This document shows, piece by piece, positions 14,859 to 41,600 of a DNA stretch of 51,784 nucleotides. The stretch covers positions 1-51,784 of the forward strand of contig UYFQ01000728.1 in NCBI GenBank assembly GCA_900617105.1, given 5' to 3'. This DNA is from Hydrurus foetidus. Taxonomy: Eukaryota. The notes under the pieces were generated by a model. That model worked only from the letters and a program-made list of their open reading frames with translations, ran no database searches and was not told the DNA's origin. The position numbers and the translations under genes are program-made. Position 1 is the first letter of the stretch; each line of letters starts with the position of its first letter.

Positions 14859-15344
14859 CAACAACAATGAGAGATCTAATACTGGTATCGAAATTGATGA
14901 TCTGCAGATATTCTGAACATTTGTATTTTTTTCCAAACTGTACTTTAGACAAAAGTGCTTGCTTAATAGATGACAATGTTTTAATGTTTACAATAAACTT
15001 TCACTGGTTTCGATAGAGATGCTGTCCATGAGCAGTGGAGATAACTCCTCTGACCTTGATTTTTTTGTCGAAAATTGTCATCTGGTCTGCGCTCTGAATG
15101 CTCATTCGAAGCTGTGTCACAATAAATTGTCGTGTCCTCGATCTGTGACTGAGGCGACACGTCATCGCTTTCGAAAATGGGGATTACCAGGAGTGAGTTC
15201 TTAATTCAAGAAGCTTCTGTGTCGCGTGTGACTCAATTGAAGAGTTCAGGAAACCAGCTGTACAGGCAGACATTCTGATACCATTGGGGGTAGTTGCGCC
15301 AACGTGGCCGAAGCGACGCATTAATGCAGTCAAAGGTCAGTGGG

Positions 15345-15800
15345 TTATTTACGCGTCTTCGGAGTACTGATGTACATCACTGTAAATGAAAAGATAAAGT
15401 GCAATTTAGAAAGGCCAATGAGTGATTTGAACGGAAGAGGTAAAGGAAAATTGGATCCACATGATGTAGATTCACTTTATTGCGTTAAAATCGATCGGTC
15501 GTCATAGACTATTTAGAAGAGATGATACACAGCATGGAGTGAAATATTACCATTGTTCCCCCTGATGAAGCAGTCACCGTAACGGTTTTTTAATTGGCCG
15601 TCGACGTATTCTTCGGTCTGTTCCATTGCTATGTTAAGGAATCCATCTAAGCACGCTAAGATCCCTCTGTATGTTACTCCCGAATTTAACTGAACAATAA
15701 CTGGTTTTCCAAGAACTTGCTTCAGGAAGTCCGACGGAGATTTCTTCGCGGCAACATCTACTTTTGCCTCGGCGGCTGCATGTGGAGCAGAATCTTCCAT
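15345..15800 (-). CDS. LSM6: U6 snRNA-associated Sm-like protein LSm6 (2 exons: 15800-15551, 15379-15345)
   Basis: PSDFLKQVLGKPVIVQLNSGVTYRGILACLDGFLNIAMEQTEEYVDGQLKNRYGDCFIRGNN spliced to VMYISTPKTRK*; canonical GT-AG intron 15550-15380. Confidence 0.95.
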
Positions 15801-17186
15801 GCCACTCAGACGCTGCTTCTTTGCTAGGTGAGAGTCCTTTCACTGATAGAGTATATAGAATGGAGTGGGGAGAGACAAGCACAAGCACTGTCGTCTGTCG
15901 ATGATCTGGGATCGATGATCGATGAGTCTTTGGCGGCTATAACTAGCATTCGTATTCCGTATGCCGTATTCCGTATGGTAGGTTCGAGATTCCATACGCC
16001 TTACGCAGTACCGTCGAGTGCCCTTTGTTTGTCCTCAAATGTGGTATTACGGTTTTTTATTTCCTTCGATATCAGCCAAAATATGATCATTTTTGCACGT
16101 TTCAAGAGTAGCAGTGAAGCGCAACTCAACTTTCTTCGAGAATCGTCAACTTTGGGATATGTGAGACATTATGATCTTGATAGATCTTGTAACTGATCTT
16201 TGGCTCAGCAGCTATTCGAGTTCAAAATCGCCCATTTTGGAGCGAAAACAGTGATTTTGACAGAGGTCAAAATTTCCCGCATGAAAACGGGGAGAAAGTT
16301 TTCCGTGATTTTCAGTGTATTTCCGATAAATCCTAATACCACATTTGAGGACAAACAAAGGGCACTCGACGATATGGTGTGTGTACTGTAGTGCTGATGT
16401 ATAACTACAGTATATCAGTATATCCTGTAATTAGTAGTACACAACTTAAGGCTACAATTCATGGCAACGTGAACACATGCGAATGATTAGAATCGTGGAG
16501 GGGACAATCTCGTTTTTCAGTTGGGGGATTTGAAGATACGATTCCGCATTAAATCGGAGTTTATCACTAATCACCCACATAAATCGACATTTCACATCTG
16601 AAAAGACTCTTGATACTACTGGGTACGGTGCTCTAAATATTGTTGCCGAAATGACGGGAGGCAGGACATCATGATGGATAAGTCATTGCAACTGTGTGCA
16701 CTTGAGCTCAGGAAGAGTGGCTGAAGTTGATGGTGTCGTGAGGTCTTCGCTTTCTTTGATAGGAGATGGTGGTGAAACTTATCATTTCTGTGCGACCCAG
16801 ATGAAATGACGGATATTACAAGTGGAGATAGTGTAGTGATGACTTGATTTGGTTACGTTGAAATGGCATGTGGTGCGTTTACTAGTGTAATGTTATTAAG
16901 TAATTTATGTAACAAATAAAGCCGAAAACCTCCTAACACATTACATGTCCTACTACTGTATAAGAGCCGGTACTCATAAAGTGAGGTTCTAACATTCTAC
17001 TTATCATAATCTACAGACCCGAATTTAGAAACGATATGACAGTAGAGCCACGAGTTTAAGAATCTGGGATGGTGAGTTGCAGTGACGACAAGAGATGTTC
17101 CGATTGACCAATACGGCCGCGTGGACTCCTCTGGGATAACTGTACATCGTAAATTAAAGTGATTATCTCTATGATACGAAAGTACA

Positions 17187-19464
17187 TTACACAGATCCTC
17201 CTACAAATGGTGGTGGGGCGTCAATTGGCTTCATCACAACGCCCTCGGCATCGAAGGTATCGAACATCACAAATTCTCTGGGTGCTTCCGTCTCGTTCTG
17301 GAAGTTGATGTCCTCCAAACTTCTCTGTGTGGTCAGGGGAAGTGCTAATGTGGAGATGGCGCCAGCGATGAGCAATGTTACTAAGACGCCCATGGCACCT
17401 CCTGGTCCCAGACCGAATCCGGCACATCCAGACTTGGAGTTCAAGTTGCATACGCACTCGGAGCCAGCTGGACTTCCTCCTGGGAGATCTCCTCCGGGCA
17501 CAGAGCGGCCGAGAGGGCAGAAGTTGAGCTTCTTGCAAGAGCCGTCGGCATTCAGATCCGAAGGAACGGCGTTGCCGTTGCATGGGTAGGCGTACTGTGT
17601 CTCAAGCATGCCAGGCTGACTCGCGTACAAGAAACCGAATATTCCAGTGATAGATCCAAGGATTCCGAATGCAGATGCCATGCCGTATCCCGTTCCTCTC
17701 CATCTTGTAGGGAAAATCTCAGCTGGAATGATGTACGTGGTAGTGAGTGGTCCCCATGAAGCGAAAAAGAAGGCAAACACAAACAGCAGAACCCAGCCGT
17801 TAGCCTTGTTCTTCCACATAGCATCAATTCCAGATTTACTTTGTCCGGCAGGGGTGTAGTCGTATTGTGACGCGTTGTTGGGCTGGAGGAGCGTTCTGCG
17901 ACCGCCTGCAACCGCTGACAGGAATAAGGCGAACAAAACGAAGCCAAGGAACTGAAGCAACTTGCGGCCAATAAGATCGACTGTGAGCACGGTAACATAG
18001 TAACCAAGGATGAGTGATGCCACGACGAATGCGATGATAGCTCTGGCGGTTCCGTCAGTTACTGCTTGGGCAGATTGGAACTTCTGGATGGGCACGAATC
18101 CGACAACTGCTGCTGCGTCTTTGATTGCGATGAGAAAAGCGTAGAATGCGGTGTTGAAGAGAAACCAGCAGAGAGACACAGTGATAAGGTTCCAGCCATG
18201 GAAGTACAAGAATCCGCAGCACGTAAGATCAGCCTCCGGGTACACTTCAATAGAGTTGTCAATCTCGATGACGTTTGTCACCATTTGGGCGTATGGCTCT
18301 CCCTGAGATGCAAGATCTGTGATGGCTCTTAGGTGGTCCTTCTTGATGTGTGCGGTGAAGCGAGGGGTCTCGACGAGAAGGTACTGAGAAAGAAGCAGGG
18401 CGATAACAGCTGGGACTGCTCCCATGCCAACAGTTGCTCTCCATACGAACTCAATAACATTAGGGCAAGATCCGATAACAGCTGATTCATAGGCGTTGAT
18501 AGACTCTGGGCTGCAATCCATGAAAGGGGTGCCCGCTGGGCAGCCGAAGCCGTATACGCCCACTATGGGAAAGTCGTTAGAGGGACCAAGCTGGGAGATG
18601 CCTGCGTTGGCAATACCGGCGACAAGGCCAGCGAAAAGAATGCCAGTGCCTGATGGAATGTGTCTGTTATCAGAGATATGTGCGGAGAAGTTACTACGTA
18701 TAAAAGTCATCATACCTTGCATCGCGAAAACGATAGCTACAAATGCTCCTCTGCTCTTTCTCGTTGAGTACTCCGACATGATAATGGCGGAGACAGGGTA
18801 CATCGCGCCGATGCCCATACCCAAAAAGAATCGCCAGAAAGAAAGGGTGCCAACAACCGCGGCACCACTGGCGCCGAAGGAGAAAGATGACAGGAATGCG
18901 AAGATAATCATTATGTAGCAGGCACTCTCGAAGATGAATTTGCGGCCATAAACATCAGCCAAAGCTCCACCGATAACACTGCCGATAACTGCTCCAACCA
19001 ATAGGGACGAAATGATGGCGGCTTCATAGTTAAGGGGCAGTATTCCTGGTCGGACGTTTTCTTTCATGAAGGTCGGGAGATCTTGGAAGTATCGGCGACC
19101 CATTGCTGGAGTCTGCGTGTCAACGAGGCGGAAAGTTAGTCCAGGTACATACAACGGTATTTCAATATTGCAGTTTTACGTGGCATTAATGACTTACCAG
19201 AAACAGGATGTTGAAGAGATCGTATGATGCTGCGAAGAAACCAAGGGCCGTGACCTAACATATCCGGCAGGTTTCGGAGGTGTCAGAAGTTATATTTCCG
19301 TGGGAATGATGATGCGTCTGGCGTTGTGATGCACTTACCGCGTAGACTTTCCATTGAAGATCTGGGCATGTGCTGCATGCACCGCCGCCGGGCACGCACC
19401 AAAGTCCTCTTTTCTCATCGAGGTTCTTGAAGACGTTTTTGCAACTTTCTTTAAGATCCGTCAT
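17187..19464 (-). CDS. MFS phosphate:H+ symporter family (PHO84/PHT1-like) protein with substituted core residues and Cys-rich loop insertions
   Basis: Exons 19464-19339, 19254-19198, 19112-18716 and 18649-17187. Family motifs: GFF..SYDLF, G.LAD.YGRK, FWRFFLG.GIG..YP.SA.IMSEY...SRGAFVA.VFAMQG, ETPRFTA, IGRK..Q..GF, GP..TT.IIPAEIFP.R.RGT..G...A.G. Confidence 0.88.
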
Positions 19465-20749
19465 TGTTGAAAGTTTGTACGAGGTGGTGACTTTCTGTCG
19501 TCAACTTCGCCAATCTTCTCACTTAATGAAAATGATGAAACGAACGACGCGTTTCGTGTATCTCTATCTATGGCTGTTATGTAGCAAGTCCATCGATTGT
19601 TTGTCAACGTCGATCAGTTCCGTGAATTTTTCACATGGACTTACTTTTTTTGTATTTCTGACGCCAATAAAAGTTCCAAAGATCTGGAGTACGGTTTTTA
19701 TTTTCTCCCTGTATCCACGTCACCTGTGAAACACAACTGCCGAAGGGAGGAACGAGGAACCGGATATTTTCTGTACGCACGTACAGAATACTGAGTACTA
19801 AAAATAAAGTAGCCAATATTTCTGTGTGTTTGTAACTAGGTGTAGTACAGTATCTTATGGATTCATGCTTTATGCACACCATCGACTTCGACTGCACACA
19901 TCAGCATTGTCCTTGCTGTCATACGAACTGTGATCAGGCAAGCATAAAATTTGTAAGGCACGAAATTATCAAATCAATGCTGTTGGATGTTGGGAAAATT
20001 CATGTAAAGAGAATTCTCGTGATATCAGACAAAAATTAATCTCTGGAGCCGGTTGGCTATCTCTTCTCGACAGGAAGATTAGCAATTCTCTTCCAATTCG
20101 GAGAAATTTGGAATAGCAATTAAAGCCGACTGAAGGCAGAAGTAACCTAAAAATGGTGTCTCATCTCTGCATACAGTGGATCCTAATTGAGATACAATAA
20201 GACTTCGATACGTACAGGGGAGGGGGACTCCTAAAATGGTCGGCCTTGCCCTCAAATATTGGGATTTCCTAAATTGCACAGTACTGTGGTAGCCTCAGTC
20301 TGGTTTGTTCTGTTCCATAAATTTGCTAATTTTCTCCATTATTTTCGTTATGTTTTCGTTGAATTGTAGTACAGAAGCAGGCCTGCAAAATTTCAGAAAT
20401 GAAATGATGTACCTTTCCAAAATGGATGGTAATTATCGATATAGCTGCTGGGATCTATATACTGTAGGGGATGTAATTGATGCAAATCTGAATGTTATTG
20501 GATCAGAATCCTGACCCGCGGAGCCCCCACCCCTCACACATCCAATAATTTGCTTCATTTGAATCCTATTTGATAATTTTCATCCATTTAGCTGACTCGA
20601 CAACTAGAACTATATTCCTTCCCTGAATAACCCGCCACCCACCCTCCGCCTCCGCCTCCGCCTTCCAATTCAATTATAAAAACTAGGGATAGGTAGCAAA
20701 GTGGGATCTCCAGCTGAGGATGACGTTTATTCTGTCCATTGCAGTCTAA

Positions 20750-22720
20750 ATGAAAGTCTTAGGGTTATGGTGCAATTTAAAGAGAAAATTCGCTCATGAA
20801 GGGAGGAAAACATTTTTGAGGAAGATTCACTCTCAGGGCAGCGGGCTTTTTGGTGCTCTTGGACAAGGGGACAGTTTGAAAGATTCAAAGCATTTTGAAA
20901 TTGTTAGCCGATCTGAGGTGGACTCTCGCCCAGTGATAGCCAAGCAGATATCTGCTGGCTGGGGTCACTCTGCAGCTGTCACTGAGGACGGTGAAGTTAT
21001 CGTTTGGGGTAGACCCTATGATTTCTCGAGTTTACTCCGGTTGAAGAAGTTGAGAGATTTTTCCGGTGGCCTTGCACGATTCGTCACCAAATTAAGCAAC
21101 AAACTTGGAGCTGAATTCGATGGAATCTACAGTACTCCGTTTCTTGTCAACGATATACAAAAGATTTCATCGGTGCACTGTTCCGGAGGTTTAACTGGTC
21201 GGTTCCTACTTTGTTTTTTACTTACGAACAAATGACCAACTGAAATGATTCCGCTATGTGTCGTTTATGTTGGCATATCTAGTGGCTCTCAGTGAATCAG
21301 GCGACCTCTATTCTTTCGGCCAGAATAGGTGGGGTCAATGCGGAGCAGGTATCGTCCTAGAGTTTCTCCTGTCCTTATTACTCTAAGCTAGCACTATTTG
21401 ATTGTCCTTTATTGTGGTTTGCAGGAGATGGTGGAGATCTTTGCTTTCACAGTCCACAAGAAGTTATGATAAATGTTAGAGTGAAAGCAGTCGACACCGG
21501 ACTACAGCACTGCATAGCCGTTTCGGAATGCGGGCGTGACGTTTTCGCATGGGGTAAAGCTGCGAGAGGTCAGCTGGGGAACATTGTATCAGATCAAGTT
21601 AGTTTTGGGATTCCCCAGGTAGTGCGGGGAATATCTGGACTTGTCCAGGGAGTTTCTGCTGGTTTGAATCACTCAGCAGCTCTCACAGCGGAAGGCATCG
21701 TTTACCTTTGGGGGAAAGGAATGTCAGATCAGCTAGACCTCGAAAATAAAAATGGTAATTTTTCTGTAATCACATGAAGGCTATTGAATGACTATGACAA
21801 GCCGTGCTATCTAATTCGCACTTCAAATCATAAGTCTTAATACTACTGTAATATGACTAAGGTTTCAATATAAATCTCATTAAGCACGAATTATGTAGTG
21901 CTGGTGTTAGTGAAAATACATTATCATTGTTGTTAAATGTGGTAGTATATCAATTGAATTACGCGCCTGCACGTACACCCTCAAAAGGTCGCTTGAAGTA
22001 CGTACGTACAATATCTAATGACCTATGCAAATCGAATTATTACAGCCAAATACGTTAAGATCTACAAAGATCAACTAGCACCTAGGATCGTTGAGATTCC
22101 AGGAGGAAGGAAAGCTCTTCAAATTTGTAGCAGGTGAGTGACTTGTGAGTCACTTTTAATAAATAGTGTTACTTTGTATGATATTCTGTAATCCGTTCAT
22201 CCGACTTATGACCACAATTTTTTTTGTATCCTGAAAGCTGTACTGTATCTTTGATTTGAATTTATTTCTTGACAGCAACTACACCCTTGTTATCCGATGT
22301 GATGACGATTCCCTCTGGGTATTGGGTACCGGGGAGTACGACCACATAGCGCACACGTCACCCATTCAAGTGCAACAGGCAGCAGAAGACTTGCTGGTAA
22401 CTCCATCTATTGAGACGTGGGTACAGAGGACATCCCCCTATGTAGTCATGCCCTCGGGGTCTGTGTTGAAGAAGGGGTTCACTAGAGTAGCCATTATAGC
22501 GCCTCACATGAAGGGGCTGTCCACACATGCGGACAGTAGTGACGATTCAGGGTCACAGTTATTTGAAGTTATTATCAATAATAGTGAGGCGTATTTAGTG
22601 GACAAACAAATAACAATCGGCGCGAATGGAGGAGACATTAAAGGCAGAACAATATTAGACTATTGCTCCGGTTGGACTCACAACATTTTGATGCTTGACG
22701 AGAAAGTAACAAACGCATAG
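20750..22720 (+). CDS. RCC1-repeat protein, possibly mitochondrial (basic N-terminal presequence), 5 exons
   Basis: RCC1 motifs ISAGWGHSAAVTEDGEVIVWG, LYSFGQNRWGQCG, VDTGLQHCIAV...FAWGKAARGQLG and VSAGLNHSAALTAEGIVYLWG. Approximate exons 20750-21197, 21282-21348, 21425-21754, 22046-22133 and ~22276-22720. Confidence 0.85.
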
Positions 22721-23245
22721 CTTTCACTACCATATGAATACGTCTCTAATGGTTTGCCTCCTGTATTATGTATAAATAAATTGTTACTGCTATATTTAAT
22801 TTCTTCCGTAAGTACATTTTAATTAATTTAATAAATAGTTTTCAGTACTGCCTCAGGAATGCTGATGAGCACTGGATATCAGATTTCATCGCGATAAATT
22901 CGGCTCAATGTGCGATTTGATTATTAATTATCACAGCAGTAAATGACATAATGGAATGAAAGGTTATCGTTTGTAACTCCAATCATGTGTGTAAGATGAT
23001 GAGATTACTTACCAGAAGCAGCTAATACATTCAGAAGCATTCCATACTCACTACGCGTCACAAAACACAATTCCTCAACTCAAGAAGAGATAGATGTGAG
23101 CATGAATTGGATGTGCAGTATAAGATGCCAGTTTAAAAAATAGAGAAGATTGAGGAAATACGCAGTAACACTCAGAAGTCAAAAACTCAATCCTGTAACG
23201 GAATGTCAAAAACAGATTTAAAAAACAATTATAAAAAACAAATAT

Positions 23246-29200: not shown

Positions 29201-30301
29201 GTACTTCACCACTCCTGCAGCGCCACTCCGCAGAATTTCAGGGGGTGGATCATTCAGTGAATAGTTTCCCTCTACTCGCAGTACATTCAAATTTACCAGC
29301 TTGTGCAGCGTAATAGGCAGTTTGAGAAGATTGTTGAAATCTAGTGACAGCTCCTTTAACTTTCTGAGATCACCAATATTATCCTAACACCATTCGAGTG
29401 AGATGTAATGACATTACAGTACACCAAATATTAAAACTGTGCAGTATTGCCGGCTTCTTACCGGAATTAGTCTAATTCTGTTTGCTGACAATCGTAAACT
29501 CCGCAAAGACTTACTGTTCGAAAGTTCCGAGGGAATGTAAGACAGAACATTTTTACATGCGCTCAGAACCATAAGATTGGGCATTCTTGCTAGACATCGT
29601 GGAAGATGGAGAAGCTCATTACAGTTCACATTAAAATACTTACAGCTACTCATTCTATCCAAATTCTCAGGTAGAATCTTCAGTTTGTTGCATTCTAAGT
29701 TAACCTTAACCAACAGATTTAGGTCCCCGAAAGTTGGTGGCAGCGATTCTATTCTATTATTGGCAATCTCCAATTTGAGCAAGTTTGTGAGTCGACCAAT
29801 CTGACCTGGCAGTGAAACCAACTGATTGTTCAGTAAATTCAGTATTTGAAGATTTCTTAGTTCAAATAAATTTCCTGGTAGCGTCACCAACTTATTGTTT
29901 GCTAATGAAAGAGCCTCGAGCGATCCCAATTTCATGCAGAAATCATCCGACAGATTATGAAGGGATAAGCCAACGAGTCGCAAACTGCGTAACTTCAAAC
30001 CGAATGTGTCATAAAAATTGAACAAAAAGGGATCTATGAACGTTAGCTCGCTCTTCCAAGAAAGATCAAGTTGCCCTCCATGAAGAGATGCCTCTAAGGC
30101 AGCGCTTTTCCAAAGTCCATGCAATCTTTTTGCTTCTGCGCAAGCCTCCTCTTCTTTTCGAAGTCGGAGTTCTTCAGTTTTCTCCCTATAAAGTTCTTCA
30201 AGTTGTAATTTACGTTGATGGGCTGGATCAAGTAGGACATTTCCATGGATTTCCTCCTCCGCATTGAAGCCACCGCCGTCGATCGGCAGAGGATGACTCA
30301 T
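23246..30301 (-). CDS. Large multi-exon leucine-rich-repeat protein with coiled-coil/low-complexity C-terminal part
   Basis: ATG 30301 (MSHPLPIDGG). Tandem LRRs (LEALSLANNKLVTLP, LQILNLLNNQLVSLP, LLKLEIANNRIESLP) and the cap GNYSLNDPPPEILRSG..GVVKYF. Downstream minus-strand ORFs (27473-28906, 26772-26996, 24600-25784, 23787-24005, 23246-23617) are flanked by GT-AG sites. Joining them into one gene is inferred. Confidence 0.7.
26406..26735. repeat. Intronic (ACAAT)n microsatellite grading into ACAAC/ACAGC units
   Basis: Near-perfect ACAAT array 26406-~26616 followed by degenerate pentamers. It explains the CIVLY/YNTIQ ORFs. Confidence 0.97.
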
Positions 30302-30756
30302 TGCGTCAGAGCATGAGCAAGGTCTGCGATGAGGATCATTTTGATGTGGGTGGATTCGATCGTCCGATTTTGAAAGTGCTTGGCATGAAAAAGTGAAGAG
30401 GGCAATTATTCTCAATTCTCAGGGCAATCCGTAATTTTCGTCTTCTGTGCTGCGAATTATGGAGTATGGAGTACGAATATTACGGGAATATTCCATCATT
30501 GATGACTGATGACTGATGACATTTGACATTGATGATGAACTTTATGATAACTATTCTCCAGCAGCCTCAGCAGAGCATATCTCCTCAATGGTGTCAACTG
30601 CAGCACGGGGGTATCTCTGAGTGGCTTCTTCACATGGACTAAGATTTGAGCGAAAATGCGTAGATCAGCGATGGAGGAGCTGAGAATGCCCGCCAGAAGT
30701 GATCCAATCAGGAGAGAAGTTTGACTTCGTTAAAATAACGCGTTTGTTGAGCCACG

Positions 30757-35853
<5,097 letters not shown>

Positions 35854-36106: not shown

Positions 36107-36973
36107 TCAAAACATTTGACCGGTGCGCTCCAGAAAATTTTTCTTCGCTATTCCCCAGGCTATTTTTGCCTCTGGCTCACGATCAGTTACTGAAACCACG
36201 TCATACTCAGTAGTCCCCTTGACGAGGATTTCCCATTTGCCAGGATACACTCTTGTCAGCCACGCACCAAGTCGACTACCTCCAACTGCGATGGGACTCA
36301 GGAACACAGCCTGCACCGCTGACGAGTAAAACTCTTTGGTGACTTTTGTGAGGGCAGGGTAAATGAACCAAGGATAGTAGCCATTTCGTAGTCTGTCCAA
36401 ATTCCCATTAATAATTATCATCGGTGCGCCTCTATCCAGCTTAGGGATATTTATCCATTCATCGACGCTGAATCCAGGATTGATAATTATCATCAATTGA
36501 GGGATGGCCGCAGGTTTATTCTCCATGAGCCCCTCTATGGATGTCATGGTGAAAGGTAAGTCCTCCCCCCATTTCTCGCGGGCTAGAAAGCACTCTTTCT
36601 TGTCAGGAAATAGGACCCACAAATCTTTGCCATACGAGGAGAAAGAATTGATGAATTGCCGCGTAAACTGACGATTTGTGTCCAGAGTCTCTCCTAGACT
36701 AATATCGTTTTTTCTGTTCGCTGGAAACTCTACCTCGATAAGTTTAGATCCCTCGTCAATGCAAAGCTTACAACTATCGACTGATTTCCTCAGAATGGCG
36801 GAGAGGTAATTATTCTGATCACTATTAAATAGAAATCCTGTCTTGCCCTCCAGCGACATGTGTAAGATTGGCTGACGAGTTGAATGCTGAAGAACGCGGT
36901 AACTTCGTCCAAAGCTGGCCATAAGTAGCAGACAGGTAACGCAATTGACTAGAGATAATGAGAGGCGCGCCAT
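36107..36973 (-). CDS. DUF1995-domain protein, probably plastid-targeted (bipartite presequence), intronless
   Basis: Motifs LIEVEFP, VLFPD..E and IIINGNLDRLRNGYYP are typical of DUF1995. The N-terminus MARLSLSLVNCVTCLLLMASFGRS-YRV...LHMS resembles a signal peptide plus transit peptide. ATG at 36973 is preferred to the LTR-derived ATG at 37234. Confidence 0.8.
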   Translation of the reverse strand: MARLSLSLVNCVTCLLLMASFGRSYRVLQHSTRQPILHMSLEGKTGFLFNSDQNNYLSAILRKSVDSCKLCIDEGSKLIEVEFPANRKNDISLGETLDTNRQFTRQFINSFSSYGKDLWVLFPDKKECFLAREKWGEDLPFTMTSIEGLMENKPAAIPQLMIIINPGFSVDEWINIPKLDRGAPMIIINGNLDRLRNGYYPWFIYPALTKVTKEFYSSAVQAVFLSPIAVGGSRLGAWLTRVYPGKWEILVKGTTEYDVVSVTDREPEAKIAWGIAKKNFLERTGQMF

Positions 36974-37111
36974 CCTGTAGACTTCCTCAATTACAATGAA
37001 CCTTTGCTCTTCGAAAGAGCAATATTGTGGATGCACAGTTGCTACTGACCACCTTCGTATGCTGTATGTAGGTTGCAAACTGCAAACTCTGAGAAATAAG
37101 CAAGAACCGTG

Positions 37112-37477
37112 TGTCGGAATAACTGTGTGATAAGTAACCGTATAAGTTATTACGTATGTACATTTAATGACGTTTCGTACGTCGTGTGCCACGTGGAGGT
37201 CGCTACTCCACCGGTCCAAGTTCTTTTTCCACATCCAGGAACATTAAAAATGAAAGTACACCATGTTTGACTGTGCGGGACAGATCGAATTTCTCGACTG
37301 TCTCCATGAACGATGTAAGCTACGTTGCATTGTTAATTACTTTAAACTCCAAACCAAACCCACTTTCGCCTTGAGCCCGGGAAAGTGACCAGAAGCCAGG
37401 TTGAAGTTGCAGAAGGAGAGCGGACCCAGGAAGGATTTAGTTGCCCATTCAGTGGAACTAAAGCGTGGACTCCGACA
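37112..37477 (+). repeat. 5' LTR (366 bp)
   Basis: TGTCGGA...TCCGACA 7-bp terminal inverted repeat; no differences from the 3' LTR found by eye. Confidence 0.97.
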
Positions 37478-37488
37478 TAATTAACAAT
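37478..37488 (+). promoter_or_regulatory. Non-tRNA primer-binding site TAATTAACAAT, complementary to LTR 37329-37339
   Basis: Directly abuts the terminal CA of the LTR, lacks TGG, and is the exact reverse complement of ATTGTTAATTA in the LTR. Confidence 0.75.
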
Positions 37489-37502
37489 TGCACTTTCATC
37501 CT

Positions 37503-38615
37503 ATGAAAGGAAAAGTTGCAGACAAGAAACCTTCTGGCAAGGGCGGCCCTGCCAACGGCGGCAGAGGCAACGCCGGCCGTGGAGGCTTCAAGCCTCCACC
37601 CCGAACAGGAACGGTAGCGGCCATAGGCGCGTTCCTGGATTTGGGGAAGGAAATGAACCATGGTAGCGTAAGCGCATGGATGAGAAAATTTAGAGAGTAT
37701 ACGCGGACCAACTATAAATCAGACATTTGTGACATATTTGGGAACGAAGGCATACCGGGAGAATATCCCGTCCTAGTGGCTCCTGCCGATATAGCGGAGG
37801 ACGCGAACTTCATGCAAATTGCAAGATGGAAGAAAACACTGGACCTCTACGACAAGAAAATGACGGAGCTAGAAACCGACAAGAAGCAGGTCTTCGGCCT
37901 GATGCTAGGTCAGATAAGCGAGACGTCTAAGGCGACTATCCGCGAAACTGAACCGGGCCTGGCCGCGATCACAGCGGAGAACCCGCTGTTATTCATGAGA
38001 GCCATCATACTCACCCACCTGTCCGACCCGAAGCTGGGAGCAGACGAGAACCTACTACGGGTAAGGATGGCCTATGAGACCGTAAGAATGGAGCCCAACG
38101 ATGTCCTTAAGTACTACTACCAGCGCTTCAAAGCCCTGAAGACTGGATACGATGACACCAAACGGGTCCTAGGGATCGAGCCGGTGTATACACCGGCCAT
38201 GACCATACACGAGAATCTTCTCACGGGTATGAAGTTCATGAAGGGACTCAACTCGGGGTACAAACAATTCGTAGAATACTACGAGCATGGGATCAAGGAC
38301 TGGCCAGATTCGCTAGATGAAGCGTACTTAGAGATGGCTAAGGTGACTCCCAGAAAACCGGCCGGAACGGGCCCACCTAATCAATCTAATATCTTTGCAG
38401 TGAAAACAGCTGGAGGAGATAAATCAGTAGGTAGAGAGAAGGGAAAGTCAACTGGGGATGCGGGAAAAGGGAAGGGTGCACGTCCGGGATACGGCACCCG
38501 ACCCGGGATCTGTAATTCATGTAAGGAACCGGGACACTATGCATATGAGTGCACTGCCCAGGAGAGCCAATCGGCTGCATCAGCAGCCAGTGGACACTCG
38601 AAATCGGTAAACTAA
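37503..38615 (+). CDS. gag: Copia Gag with CCHC zinc knuckle
   Basis: ATG 37503; G/K/R-rich N-terminus; capsid-like core (FGLMLGQISETSK...YYQRFK); CNSCKEPGHYAYEC; TAA 38613-38615. Confidence 0.92.
   Translation: MKGKVADKKPSGKGGPANGGRGNAGRGGFKPPPRTGTVAAIGAFLDLGKEMNHGSVSAWMRKFREYTRTNYKSDICDIFGNEGIPGEYPVLVAPADIAEDANFMQIARWKKTLDLYDKKMTELETDKKQVFGLMLGQISETSKATIRETEPGLAAITAENPLLFMRAIILTHLSDPKLGADENLLRVRMAYETVRMEPNDVLKYYYQRFKALKTGYDDTKRVLGIEPVYTPAMTIHENLLTGMKFMKGLNSGYKQFVEYYEHGIKDWPDSLDEAYLEMAKVTPRKPAGTGPPNQSNIFAVKTAGGDKSVGREKGKSTGDAGKGKGARPGYGTRPGICNSCKEPGHYAYECTAQESQSAASAASGHSKSVN
38606..38612 (+). promoter_or_regulatory. Candidate -1 ribosomal frameshift heptamer G_GTA_AAC just before the gag stop
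   Basis: X_XXY_YYZ phase in the gag frame (TCG GTA AAC TAA); a -1 shift enters the pol frame (LNTLHYSS...). Confidence 0.6.
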
Positions 38616-41600
38616 ACACATTACATTATTCCTCACCCACATACGCACCCCCACACACACACACACCCGTACATGCACTTACCCCCACCGGTCCACGTTT
38701 GGCTGACTCCACTAGCGGGGTTGAATCGTGCGACCGTATTGTATTTAGTGCAAACACTTGTAATATATACAATGCAATTAAAACAAAACACATACTGCTT
38801 GATACTTGTGCTGGTGAGTCGGTATTCAACGACTCATCCCTGTTATACAATGTAAAATCTGCCACCACTCCCATGATTGTTAGCGGGGTGAATCCGAAAG
38901 GAAAACCGCTAATAGTCAAGGAGCGTGGCGAATCAGCGTTTGGCAATGTATATTATAGCCCTGACTGTGCTGGTAACATACTGTCTTTCGGTAATGCTGT
39001 ACGTGACTGTACTGATGTTATGTACTTACATGACCATGACTGTTACATAGTACAGGATGTCACTGGTAATTATTTCTACAGATTCTCACGAGATGAATCT
39101 ATGAATATATACCAATGCAACCTTGACACTATGGTGACTAAATGCATGCCACTATTAGTTACAACCGTAGAAGAGAAAAAGAAGAAGTATACAGTTAGAG
39201 AGGTCAGAGACGCTTCGCTAGCTAGAGACTATCAGCGTAGGCTAGGTTACGCTAGCGCAGCACAAACTATCAAGTTGATATCCCAAGGGAATTTGACTAA
39301 CAGTAAAGTGACTGCGCGAGACGTACACCGAGCAGTAGACATATGGGGACCAGACATTGGATCCCTAAAGGGTAAAACTACTAGCCACCAAGCTAAGCTA
39401 GAAGAGAAGTTACCTCTTATAGGCACAGAGTATAAGACAGAACAGATCATGTACATTGATATAATGTTTGTCAACCAAATACCTTACCTAGTATCAGTTG
39501 TACAGCCTATTGAATTCCTGTTTGTTAGCAAGCTAGCCAAGAGAGATCACAAAACACTATGGAATAGTCTAAAGACAGCCATAGCAGGCATGACTAAGTA
39601 TCACTTTAAGATTAAGATGATAAGAGTAGACGGTGAAGGCGCCATAAACACCGAATGGTTCCACAACAAAGTCAGTCTCAGAGGTATCATTTTAGATGTT
39701 ACCGGAGCCGGGGAAGCCGTAGCCGTAGTGGAGCGTAAGATTAGACATATCAAAGAGAGAGTCAGATCCGTTATTAACACGCTGCCATTTGAATTAAGCG
39801 AGAAACTTGAAGTGTGGTTAGTTAAGTATGCAGTCAGTAGAATTGTATTAGCTCCCACACGTAACTCTATAGATCACATCAGCCCACGAGAGAAACTCAG
39901 CGGTAGAAAGATTGATGTAGATAAAGAGATTAAGCACGGTTTTGGTGATTATGTCCAAGTGCACAATGATGTTATTGACAACTCTACCAAACCAAGAACA
40001 GCCGGGGCCATAGCACTTATGAGCTCCGGCAATCTAGAAGGTTCATGGTACTACATGCTGTTAGCAAATGAACAAATTGTTAAACGTACAAAAGCAACCG
40101 TACTACCCATGCCTAACGAAGTTGTGTTACACTTAAACAGTCTGGCAGCGAATAGAAAAACTGCCAATGTTAAACAACCTGTATTCGAGAATAGCCACAC
40201 CGTATTCGATGATGATGATGATGTTGACGATGACCCTGAATACATTGGTGACATTGAGTATGATACCATTGACGAATCTGCTGACGCAGAAGAAACCGAT
40301 GAAATCACTGAAGACAACCAACACGTTGACAATGACACATACCCTGAGCCACAACAATATATGTACGATGAAAACAACCCACCGACATTAGATGAGTATG
40401 TAGATGACACACTATATACGAATGACACCACTCATACTAATGACGAACTATATTACGATAACCACACACATGATGATGCGAATCAATACGAAACACATGA
40501 GCGTTCACCCAGATACGATCAAGCACTAATTGATGATATATTTGGAATAAGTGATGATGAAAATGACTTTGACGATGTAACTGCGCAACCCGAAGTATTC
40601 TCACCACCTTCAGTAATAGAAACAGAATATGATTTACCAGACAGTGTTTCACCTTTGTTGCGTAGAAGTGGTAGAAACCACCAACTAGGTAAATGGAATA
40701 GGAAATATGTTGGTAGCATATTTTATAAAAACACATCCCTATATAAGATGACTGTTAGTGAAGGAAATAATAAGTTAGGGGTGCTAGCTGTTGATTCCAT
40801 TACATCCGAATTAAAACAAATGTGCGATAAGGATGTATGGGAAGGTGTAACTTATGAATCACTTACACCTAAACAAAAACGCACCATCATACCGAGTAGT
40901 ATGTTTCTAAAAGAAAAGTACACGGCTGATGGTATGTTTGAAAAACTGAAATCTAGACTAGTAGCCGGTGGGCACCTACAAGATAGAGATGTTTATAACA
41001 ATGGTGCATCCCCTACTGCTAGCACATCCAGCGTATTTATACTAACTGCGATTGCTGCTAAACAGAACCGTGCTATTGCCACTGTTGATTTCCCTGGTGC
41101 ATTTCTGAATAGCGATATGCCGCTGACCGGTGACCATGTTGTATACATGCGATTAAATAAACAACTGACTGCTGCACTAATACAAATAGACGCAACATAT
41201 AACAAATACATAAATAAGAATGGAACATGTATTGTGAAACTAAAGAAAGCTTTATATGGATGTGTAGAATCTGCTAAGCTATGGTATGACAAACTATCCA
41301 GCGATTTGAATAAACTCAATTATACTGCAAACGAATACGACATCTGCGTATTCAATAGAACCGAAACTGATAACACACAAACCTCATTAGTAATTCATGT
41401 TGACGACATGATTATTACTGCTTCAACCGAATCCTGCGTGGATGAGGTTATAAAGCAGATTGAAACTATATACCCCGGTCTAACCAAACACCGCGGCAAA
41501 GTATTAAATTACATAGGTATGACCTTCGACTTCAATAACGAAGGAGTAGTCAAGATGACGATGGAAGGGTTTGTAAAAGATCTCATTGAGGGGTGCACGG

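Follow-up and report, generated by a model that had tools for sequence, protein, structure and literature searches.

The closest described relatives of the protein analysed here are the phosphate transporters PiPT, OsPHT1;11, AtPHT1;1 and Pho84 of the PHS family, in which the residues that bind phosphate (Pi) and relay protons are nearly invariant, from archaea-like metagenome records to plants. In OsPT11, Pi is bound by Q178, W310, D314, N425 and K453, and transport is impaired by D39N, D42N, D150N and D314N, as well as by alanine changes of the ligands. The AtPHT1;1 variants D35A, D144A, N421A and K449A gave no complementation in planta, D308A was partly active, and E504 is essential; modelling of this protein paired N417 with the Y328 network, T81 with K459 and R233 with D149 (the second residue of each pair in PiPT numbering). 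K492 mutants of Pho84 are active with lower affinity, and its D358N variant shows at most 20% of transport and full signalling. Among sugar porters, XylE has no ionisable residue in its pocket and couples protons via the pair D27-R133, and a TM7 Asn of GLUT1 binds sugar hydroxyls. The tails of Snf3 and Rgt2 have a common 25-residue signalling box, and known transporter-like sensors retain their ligand site. The statements on characterised proteins are drawn collectively from a common set of papers (10.1101/2025.08.04.668567, PMC6761603, PMC3824880, PMC8154325, PMC9762399, PMC5890159, PMC10876965, PMC5100055, PMC5451523).

The window, a stretch of 51,784 nucleotides of Hydrurus foetidus (contig UYFQ01000728.1), contains a minus-strand gene (17187-19464) encoding a PHT1/Pho84 homologue of 680 amino acids. 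The gene model derived from the sequence has four exons and no internal stop (Table 1). The original prediction of an intact frame is thus correct as to the encoded protein, but the presence of three introns makes this a spliced gene and not a single open reading frame. Intron 3 is in frame and carries no stop in the coding frame, so that gene callers read through it; the resulting 22 residues have a pLDDT under 50 in the fold predicted by AlphaFold2. The RNA evidence comes from two poly(A) runs of one sample, which bears the same species label as the best-matching DNA dataset; about 6% of each run was mapped on 15300-22800, and in both runs each of the three introns is skipped by between 95 and 202 reads. 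Read depth in exonic bins was 200-345, with the strand expected for a minus-strand gene, compared with about 130 for the neighbouring LSm gene and 3-21 for the RCC1-like gene; the rough RPKM values were about 160, 80 and 7, respectively. Splicing at these three sites is also seen in a related strain, in a contig from a freshwater metatranscriptome that ends with poly(A) at 16837. The gene is intact, spliced and well expressed.

Table 1. Features of the transporter gene and neighbouring genes, in window positions
Feature	Position	Strand	Basis or remark
5' UTR, approximate extent	19465..19534	-	RNA reads
Exon 1, residues 1-42	19339..19464	-	gene model; joint 19252/19337 in RNA reads
Intron 1, 84 nt, GT-AG	19255..19338	-	skipped by 113 and 112 reads
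Exon 2, most of TM1; A51 19230-19228, D54 19221-19219	19198..19254	-	gene model and alignments
Intron 2, 85 nt, GT-AG	19113..19197	-	skipped by 187 and 202 reads
Exon 3, TM2-TM5; motif A, E123 18929-18927, R155 18833-18831, M165 18803-18801, Y166, F190, Q193	18716..19112	-	alignments
Intron 3, 66 nt, GT-AG	18650..18715	-	skipped by 102 and 95 reads
Exon 4, TM5 end to stop; W355, N359 18155-18153, Y363, S491, L495 17747-17745, I523 17663-17661	17187..18649	-	gene model and alignments
Cys-rich TM11-TM12 loop, residues 538-608, six Cys	17406..17618	-	sequences; ordered in both AlphaFold2 models
Cytosolic tail box, residues 631-662	17244..17339	-	row comparison; distal half predicted disordered
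3' UTR	16837..17186	-	poly(A) at 16837 in field metatranscriptome contig, related strain
LSm protein	15513-15839		neighbour gene
RCC1-like protein	20750-22717		neighbour gene
LRR protein	29417-30418		neighbour gene
Vps16	31158-32809		neighbour gene
DUF1995 protein	36110-37243		neighbour gene

By descent and fold the protein is a member of the PHS family (TC 2.A.1.9). The best family match was TIGR00887 (E 9.6e-75), and the best solved matches were 9kmq (E 4.6e-50) and 7sp5 (E 1.2e-31), which are OsPHT1;11 and PiPT, respectively. The TIGR00887 scores, for a cut-off of 610, were 252 for the query without TM1 and 277 for the full-length relative P0008, with the canonical sister P0009 (513) below the cut-off too. 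AlphaFold2 models of P0008 and of the query without TM1 (pLDDT 86.4 and 85.1) have the 12-TM MFS fold; a Foldseek search with the P0008 model ranked OsPHT1;11 and PiPT first (TM 0.82-0.84 by target), and the ESM Atlas returned for P0008 generic H+/Pi cotransporter clusters and nothing else.

The nearest canonical relatives are chrysophyte PHT1-like proteins of Chromulina sp. UTEX LB2642 (P0126/P0127), Dinobryon divergens (P0141) and Chromulina nebulosa (P0362), which have extended loops and a Cys-rich TM11-TM12 loop as in the query, keep the Pi and proton residues where these are covered, and carry unconserved tails. The six-Cys loop, non-cytosolic as inferred from MFS topology, is a feature of the whole PHT1-like group that is absent from the plant and fungal structures; the solved PHS structures also lack the tail box of the query. 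Long inserted loops were observed in P0012, P0136 and P0147, and two metagenome records (P0037, P0041) are PHS transporters fused to a PF01865 domain, which we take to be PhoU-like.

All five motifs listed as substituted in the original prediction are found in the translated gene, and its by-eye mapping of residues agrees with the PiPT and OsPHT1;11 alignments. In a pairwise HMMER alignment of the query without TM1 to PiPT chain 7sp5 (chain numbering +2), D149, D324, N431 and K459 of PiPT are replaced by M165, N359, L495 and I523. Because TM1 sits in exon 2, outside the aligned part of the query, D45 has no direct PiPT alignment, and its apparent replacement by A51 is based on the TM1 family motif and the spacing of D39/D42 in OsPT11 and D35/D38 in AtPHT1;1. 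Both proton-relay residues (D45 and D149) and three Pi ligands (D324, N431 and K459) are therefore replaced in the query, so that three of the five OsPT11 Pi ligands are changed. The ligands Y150, Q177, W320 and Y328, correctly listed as kept, are aligned to identical residues (Y166, Q193, W355 and Y363), as is F174 (F190); these five are partly lost in relatives. The pair D48-R139 is kept as D54-R155.

The sites modelled as partners of these residues are lost as well (AtPHT1;1 numbering): in the clade described below, 22 of 23 rows have Ser or Ala at the N417 site and 15 of 15 have Ala at the T81 site, and the close subclade lacks the Arg of the R233 site. A polar stretch after the TM7 Tyr has turned aliphatic. 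The C-terminal PET-motif Glu, conserved in 99% of 142 homologues, is absent from all 21 covering clade rows and is L632 in the query; judging from an offset in P0018 and from published descriptions, it is probably E504 of AtPHT1;1. The query thus differs from PHS proteins at the five Pi and proton residues, the N417 site and the PET Glu, and shares with them the aromatic gates and A-motifs: all eight aromatic gate positions named for OsPT11 are kept (one Phe as Tyr), as are both A-motifs, the TM4, TM10 and post-TM6 Glu and the TM5 and TM11 Arg. In query numbering, no variation occurs within the clade at the motif-A Asp, R155, E175, R182, E287, R290, D418, E504 and R511; R422 does not vary within the close subclade, and three of nine deep rows have His at this position. 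Judging from these alignments, the phosphate and proton network is lost as one unit.

Protein searches revealed 42 rows with this pattern, 30 of them close (the query and relatives of about 59-93% identity) and 12 deep (about 38-47%). Most of them are partial sequences, in many cases one exon predicted from a metagenome, and rows therefore do not equal independent genes. Fragments outside the trees were grouped by similarity, and confidently aligned residues alone were counted; the weak non-PHS hits P0062-P0091, near-identical cluster members, P0203 and rows found later were excluded. Among the counted clade rows, the query and P0008 alone cover all sites. D45 is kept in 0 of 4 clade rows versus 130 of 137 other homologues, an acid at the D149 site in 0/15 versus 162/169, D324 in 1/20 versus 167/171, N431 in 0/24 versus 168/169 and K459 in 0/24 versus 169/169. 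The D324 site is Asn in 19 of the 20 clade rows, a specific change rather than drift. D324, N431 and K459 are all lost in each of the 12 clade rows covering them, and at most one is lost in all 161 others; among the 127 other homologues with all five sites covered, 115 keep every one of them, eight lost one, four lost two and none lost three or more. The ligands kept in the query vary among relatives, which can have Thr, Val or Phe at Y150, His at Q177 and Ser, Phe or Val at Y328; D48 can likewise be Ala or Asn.

Some individual records are worth mentioning. A close-subclade fragment, P0296, retains Asp at the D324 site. The records P0283 and P0295, with a longest contig of equal length to that of P0296, have the other losses, and one gene may thus have kept or regained this Asp. 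P0335 is a further clade row with Ala at the D45 site. Four unrelated homologues (P0145, P0061, P0195 and P0243) have lost two of the five sites each. P0145, of the canonical sister group, carries D324N and D149A, either independently or as an early step, and branches near the clade with modest support.

In a tree of 58 rows, 22 clade rows formed one branch (SH-aLRT 100). The possibility that this monophyly is an artefact of common substitutions was rejected: in a 33-row tree built without 21 functional columns, 12 clade rows were still monophyletic with a support of 100/100. Relatives down to 38% identity thus share the substitutions. The stem branch is long (0.61-0.71 changes per column). 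In midpoint-rooted trees, which do not fix the exact sister, PHT1-like proteins enclose the clade, which sits among loop-extended canonical proteins including chrysophyte records. The single named member is from Hydrurales sp. CCMP1899, and P0008 belongs to the Hydrurales; the clade is likely an old branch of phosphate-transporter copies of golden-algal origin. A search for relatives' DNA in metagenome contigs gave 73 and 156 pattern matches, none of which was confirmed.

The differences listed between related strains include at least 51 synonymous and at least 4 non-synonymous ones (30 of 33 and 21 of 22 are synonymous), and none of them alters the five sites. With 490 synonymous and 1550 non-synonymous sites, the ratio is near 0.03, an indicative value from the differences listed. 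This indicates that the protein is maintained under strong purifying selection. A decaying pseudogene, or an artefact of sequencing or prediction, might account for the long stem branch, but this explanation has a negligible probability, being refuted by the abundant spliced mRNA, the synonymous excess and the same changes in many independent records.

Given its defining residues, the query would fail as a working H+:Pi symporter, and we consider it very unlikely that it performs ordinary H+:Pi symport; the alignments and the clade-wide loss of the sites back the original prediction on this point. Features absent from that prediction are the clade-wide loss itself, the retention of D48-R139, the tail box and a Glu in TM3 as a possible partial compensation. 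The latter, E123, is found in 15 of 15 clade rows and in 0 of 162 other homologues. In OsPT11, TM3 lines the proton tunnel, and E123 together with D54 could in principle rebuild a proton path for a compensated H+:phosphate symporter. Such compensation is highly improbable, since a single acid close to the cytosolic end of TM3 is no substitute for the Asp, Asn and Lys of the site, and the helices of the pocket have gained no basic residue.

A passive low-affinity phosphate carrier, acting in export or vacuolar release, is another explanation. In this case, D324N would mimic the protonated, Pi-accepting state, the relay would not be needed, and in the absence of N431 and K459 Pi could be released without being deprotonated. 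The query retains Y150, F174, Q177, W320 and Y328, and residual activity is reported for Pho84 K492 mutants, AtPHT1;1 D308A and Pho84 D358N (up to 20% of transport). However, the pocket has no positive charge, OsPT11 D314N, N425A and K453A are each reported to impair transport, AtPHT1;1 N421A or K449A to abolish function in planta, and further Pi ligands are lost in deep members. Overall, this explanation seems unlikely.

Of the three functions offered by the original prediction (a non-transporting phosphate sensor, an uncoupled facilitator and a carrier for another solute), the last is the one we favour. It is possible, with a likelihood approaching but not reaching an even chance, that this PHT1/Pho84-family paralogue transports a small, uncharged polar solute by alternating access. 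As in sugar porters, no ionisable residue would be left in the central pocket, which would make it a poor site for an anion. A profile alignment to XylE paired D54 with D27, R155 with R133 and N359 with N294 (the last with a low column confidence of 1), as well as the TM10 Trp-Gly-Pro-Leu of the query with Trp-Gly-Pro-Val. The query thus shares with XylE and the GLUTs an uncharged pocket, the TM1 Asp and TM4 Arg, a TM7 Asn (at this low pairing confidence) and a TM10 Trp-Gly-Pro-aliphatic motif, although its weak sugar-porter scores show that sugar porters are not its family by descent. With the D54-R155 pair, N359 and the uncharged pocket, it would have exchanged the charged arrangement of PHS proteins for the uncharged one of sugar porters with its gates kept, and from this arrangement we infer a possible carrier of an uncharged polar solute. 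Any proton coupling would go through D54-R155, the pair that couples XylE, and the TM7 Asn would hydrogen-bond the hydroxylated solute. The cycling machinery appears to be largely kept, which we count for a carrier, although the lost PET Glu may mean impaired cycling. The retained Asp of P0296 speaks against it.

As for the solute, the drift of Y150, Q177, Y328 and D48 means that no single new pocket is common to the clade. The xylose ligands of XylE (Q168, Q288, Q289 and Q415) have no counterparts in the query, in which the C-terminal PET-motif Glu is lost as well; the pocket is thus not a hexose pocket, and a hexose carrier was set aside. A Git1-like carrier of organic phosphate was also set aside, because the fungal homologues in the set, taken together, keep D324, N431 and K459. 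By family precedent, a polyol such as inositol would be the first candidate: yeast Pho84 is reported to export myo-inositol (PMC13578697). The boldest candidate, silicic acid, an uncharged tetrahedral analogue of phosphate, is a long shot; Slc34a2, an unrelated phosphate carrier, is reported to export silicon, but chrysophytes, a silicifying lineage, already possess SITs.

In the C-terminal tail, 13 close rows have 90% identity to the query over residues 631-662, which makes this box the most conserved segment measured (0.69-0.84 for the helices). Within it, L632 takes the place of the PET-motif Glu. Over the 24 residues after the Leu-Glu motif, identity is 84% in 80 close-subclade pairs versus 26% in 138 canonical pairs at matched core divergence, with the pairs being non-independent. 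Residues 648-680 have a pLDDT under 50 in the AlphaFold2 model, and part of the box therefore looks like a linear motif. A C-terminal Val is present in all 14 close rows with a C-terminus and in 28 of 126 other homologues; a terminal Val can act as an ER-export signal. The box is restricted to the close subclade, and deep rows carry other tails of about 130 to 560 residues, while that of the query has about 50. If the protein is a carrier, the box would serve as a signal for sorting or for binding a partner. Its conservation above that of the helices may be explained at least as well by a receptor.

A receptor of this kind, barely transporting or not at all, would resemble Snf3 and Rgt2, with the core binding a ligand or a partner transporter and the box signalling to a cytosolic protein. 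The strong conservation of the box, which is predicted to be partly disordered, the long tails of deep members and the 25-residue box of the two yeast proteins are consistent with it, and a number of the changes fixed in the clade lie on the cytosolic side (E123, V286, Q309, E311, Y515 and L632; Y515 is present in 24 of 24 clade rows, and S526 is a further, mostly fixed gain). Signalling is retained in Pho84 D358N, and dead AtPHT1;1 variants are dominant negatives. On the other hand, the known transporter-like sensors keep the ligand site, which is altered here, and the tails of Snf3 and Rgt2 are long. The box is missing from deep subclades, the conserved tail could also be a sorting signal, and the high expression (rough RPKM about 160) suits a carrier better, as sensors are typically scarce. 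Taken together, a receptor function is conceivable but rather doubtful. With the same doubt, golden algae could have made a receptor from a PHT1 copy, a counterpart of Snf3/Rgt2 in the phosphate-transporter family, outside fungi. A sensor of Pi itself is doubtful given three changed ligands out of five, and the phosphate sensor of the original prediction, taken literally, fits worst. The Pho84 D358N variant invoked for it, which keeps signalling and up to 20% of transport, is a single change with the other ligands intact, whereas here N431 and K459 are gone too and relatives lose Y150, Q177 or Y328.

Literature searches, which did not extend to subscription journals or supplements, found no prior description of such a clade, and the subfamily is real, conserved and apparently undescribed. 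An old lineage has removed, as a unit, residues that are nearly invariant elsewhere in PHT1/Pho84 proteins and has stayed under strong selection; with the canonical sisters as controls, nature has thus set up an experiment on what determines substrate and coupling in the family. Whatever its role, the protein represents an abundant membrane function in a freshwater algal group that is common where phosphorus is scarce. Such genes carry the annotation 'inorganic phosphate transporter' and would be miscounted as markers of phosphate uptake in metatranscriptomes.

The five neighbouring genes in the window (Table 1) gave no hint of the substrate. At 3-1622 on the minus strand there is an open frame of 540 residues with Asp/Asn/Arg-rich repeats and without a Pfam match, and a second frame is also open. 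A short high-copy repeat lies between the LSm and transporter genes (15990-16400), where the summed contig depth in the best-matching DNA dataset is up to about 30,000, versus 130 in the flanking sequence. Copia-like retrotransposon ORFs (zinc knuckle, RVT_2) occupy 37485-42466, and a second partial Copia-like copy, resembling by eye the RNase H region, is found at the end of the window (50845-51721).
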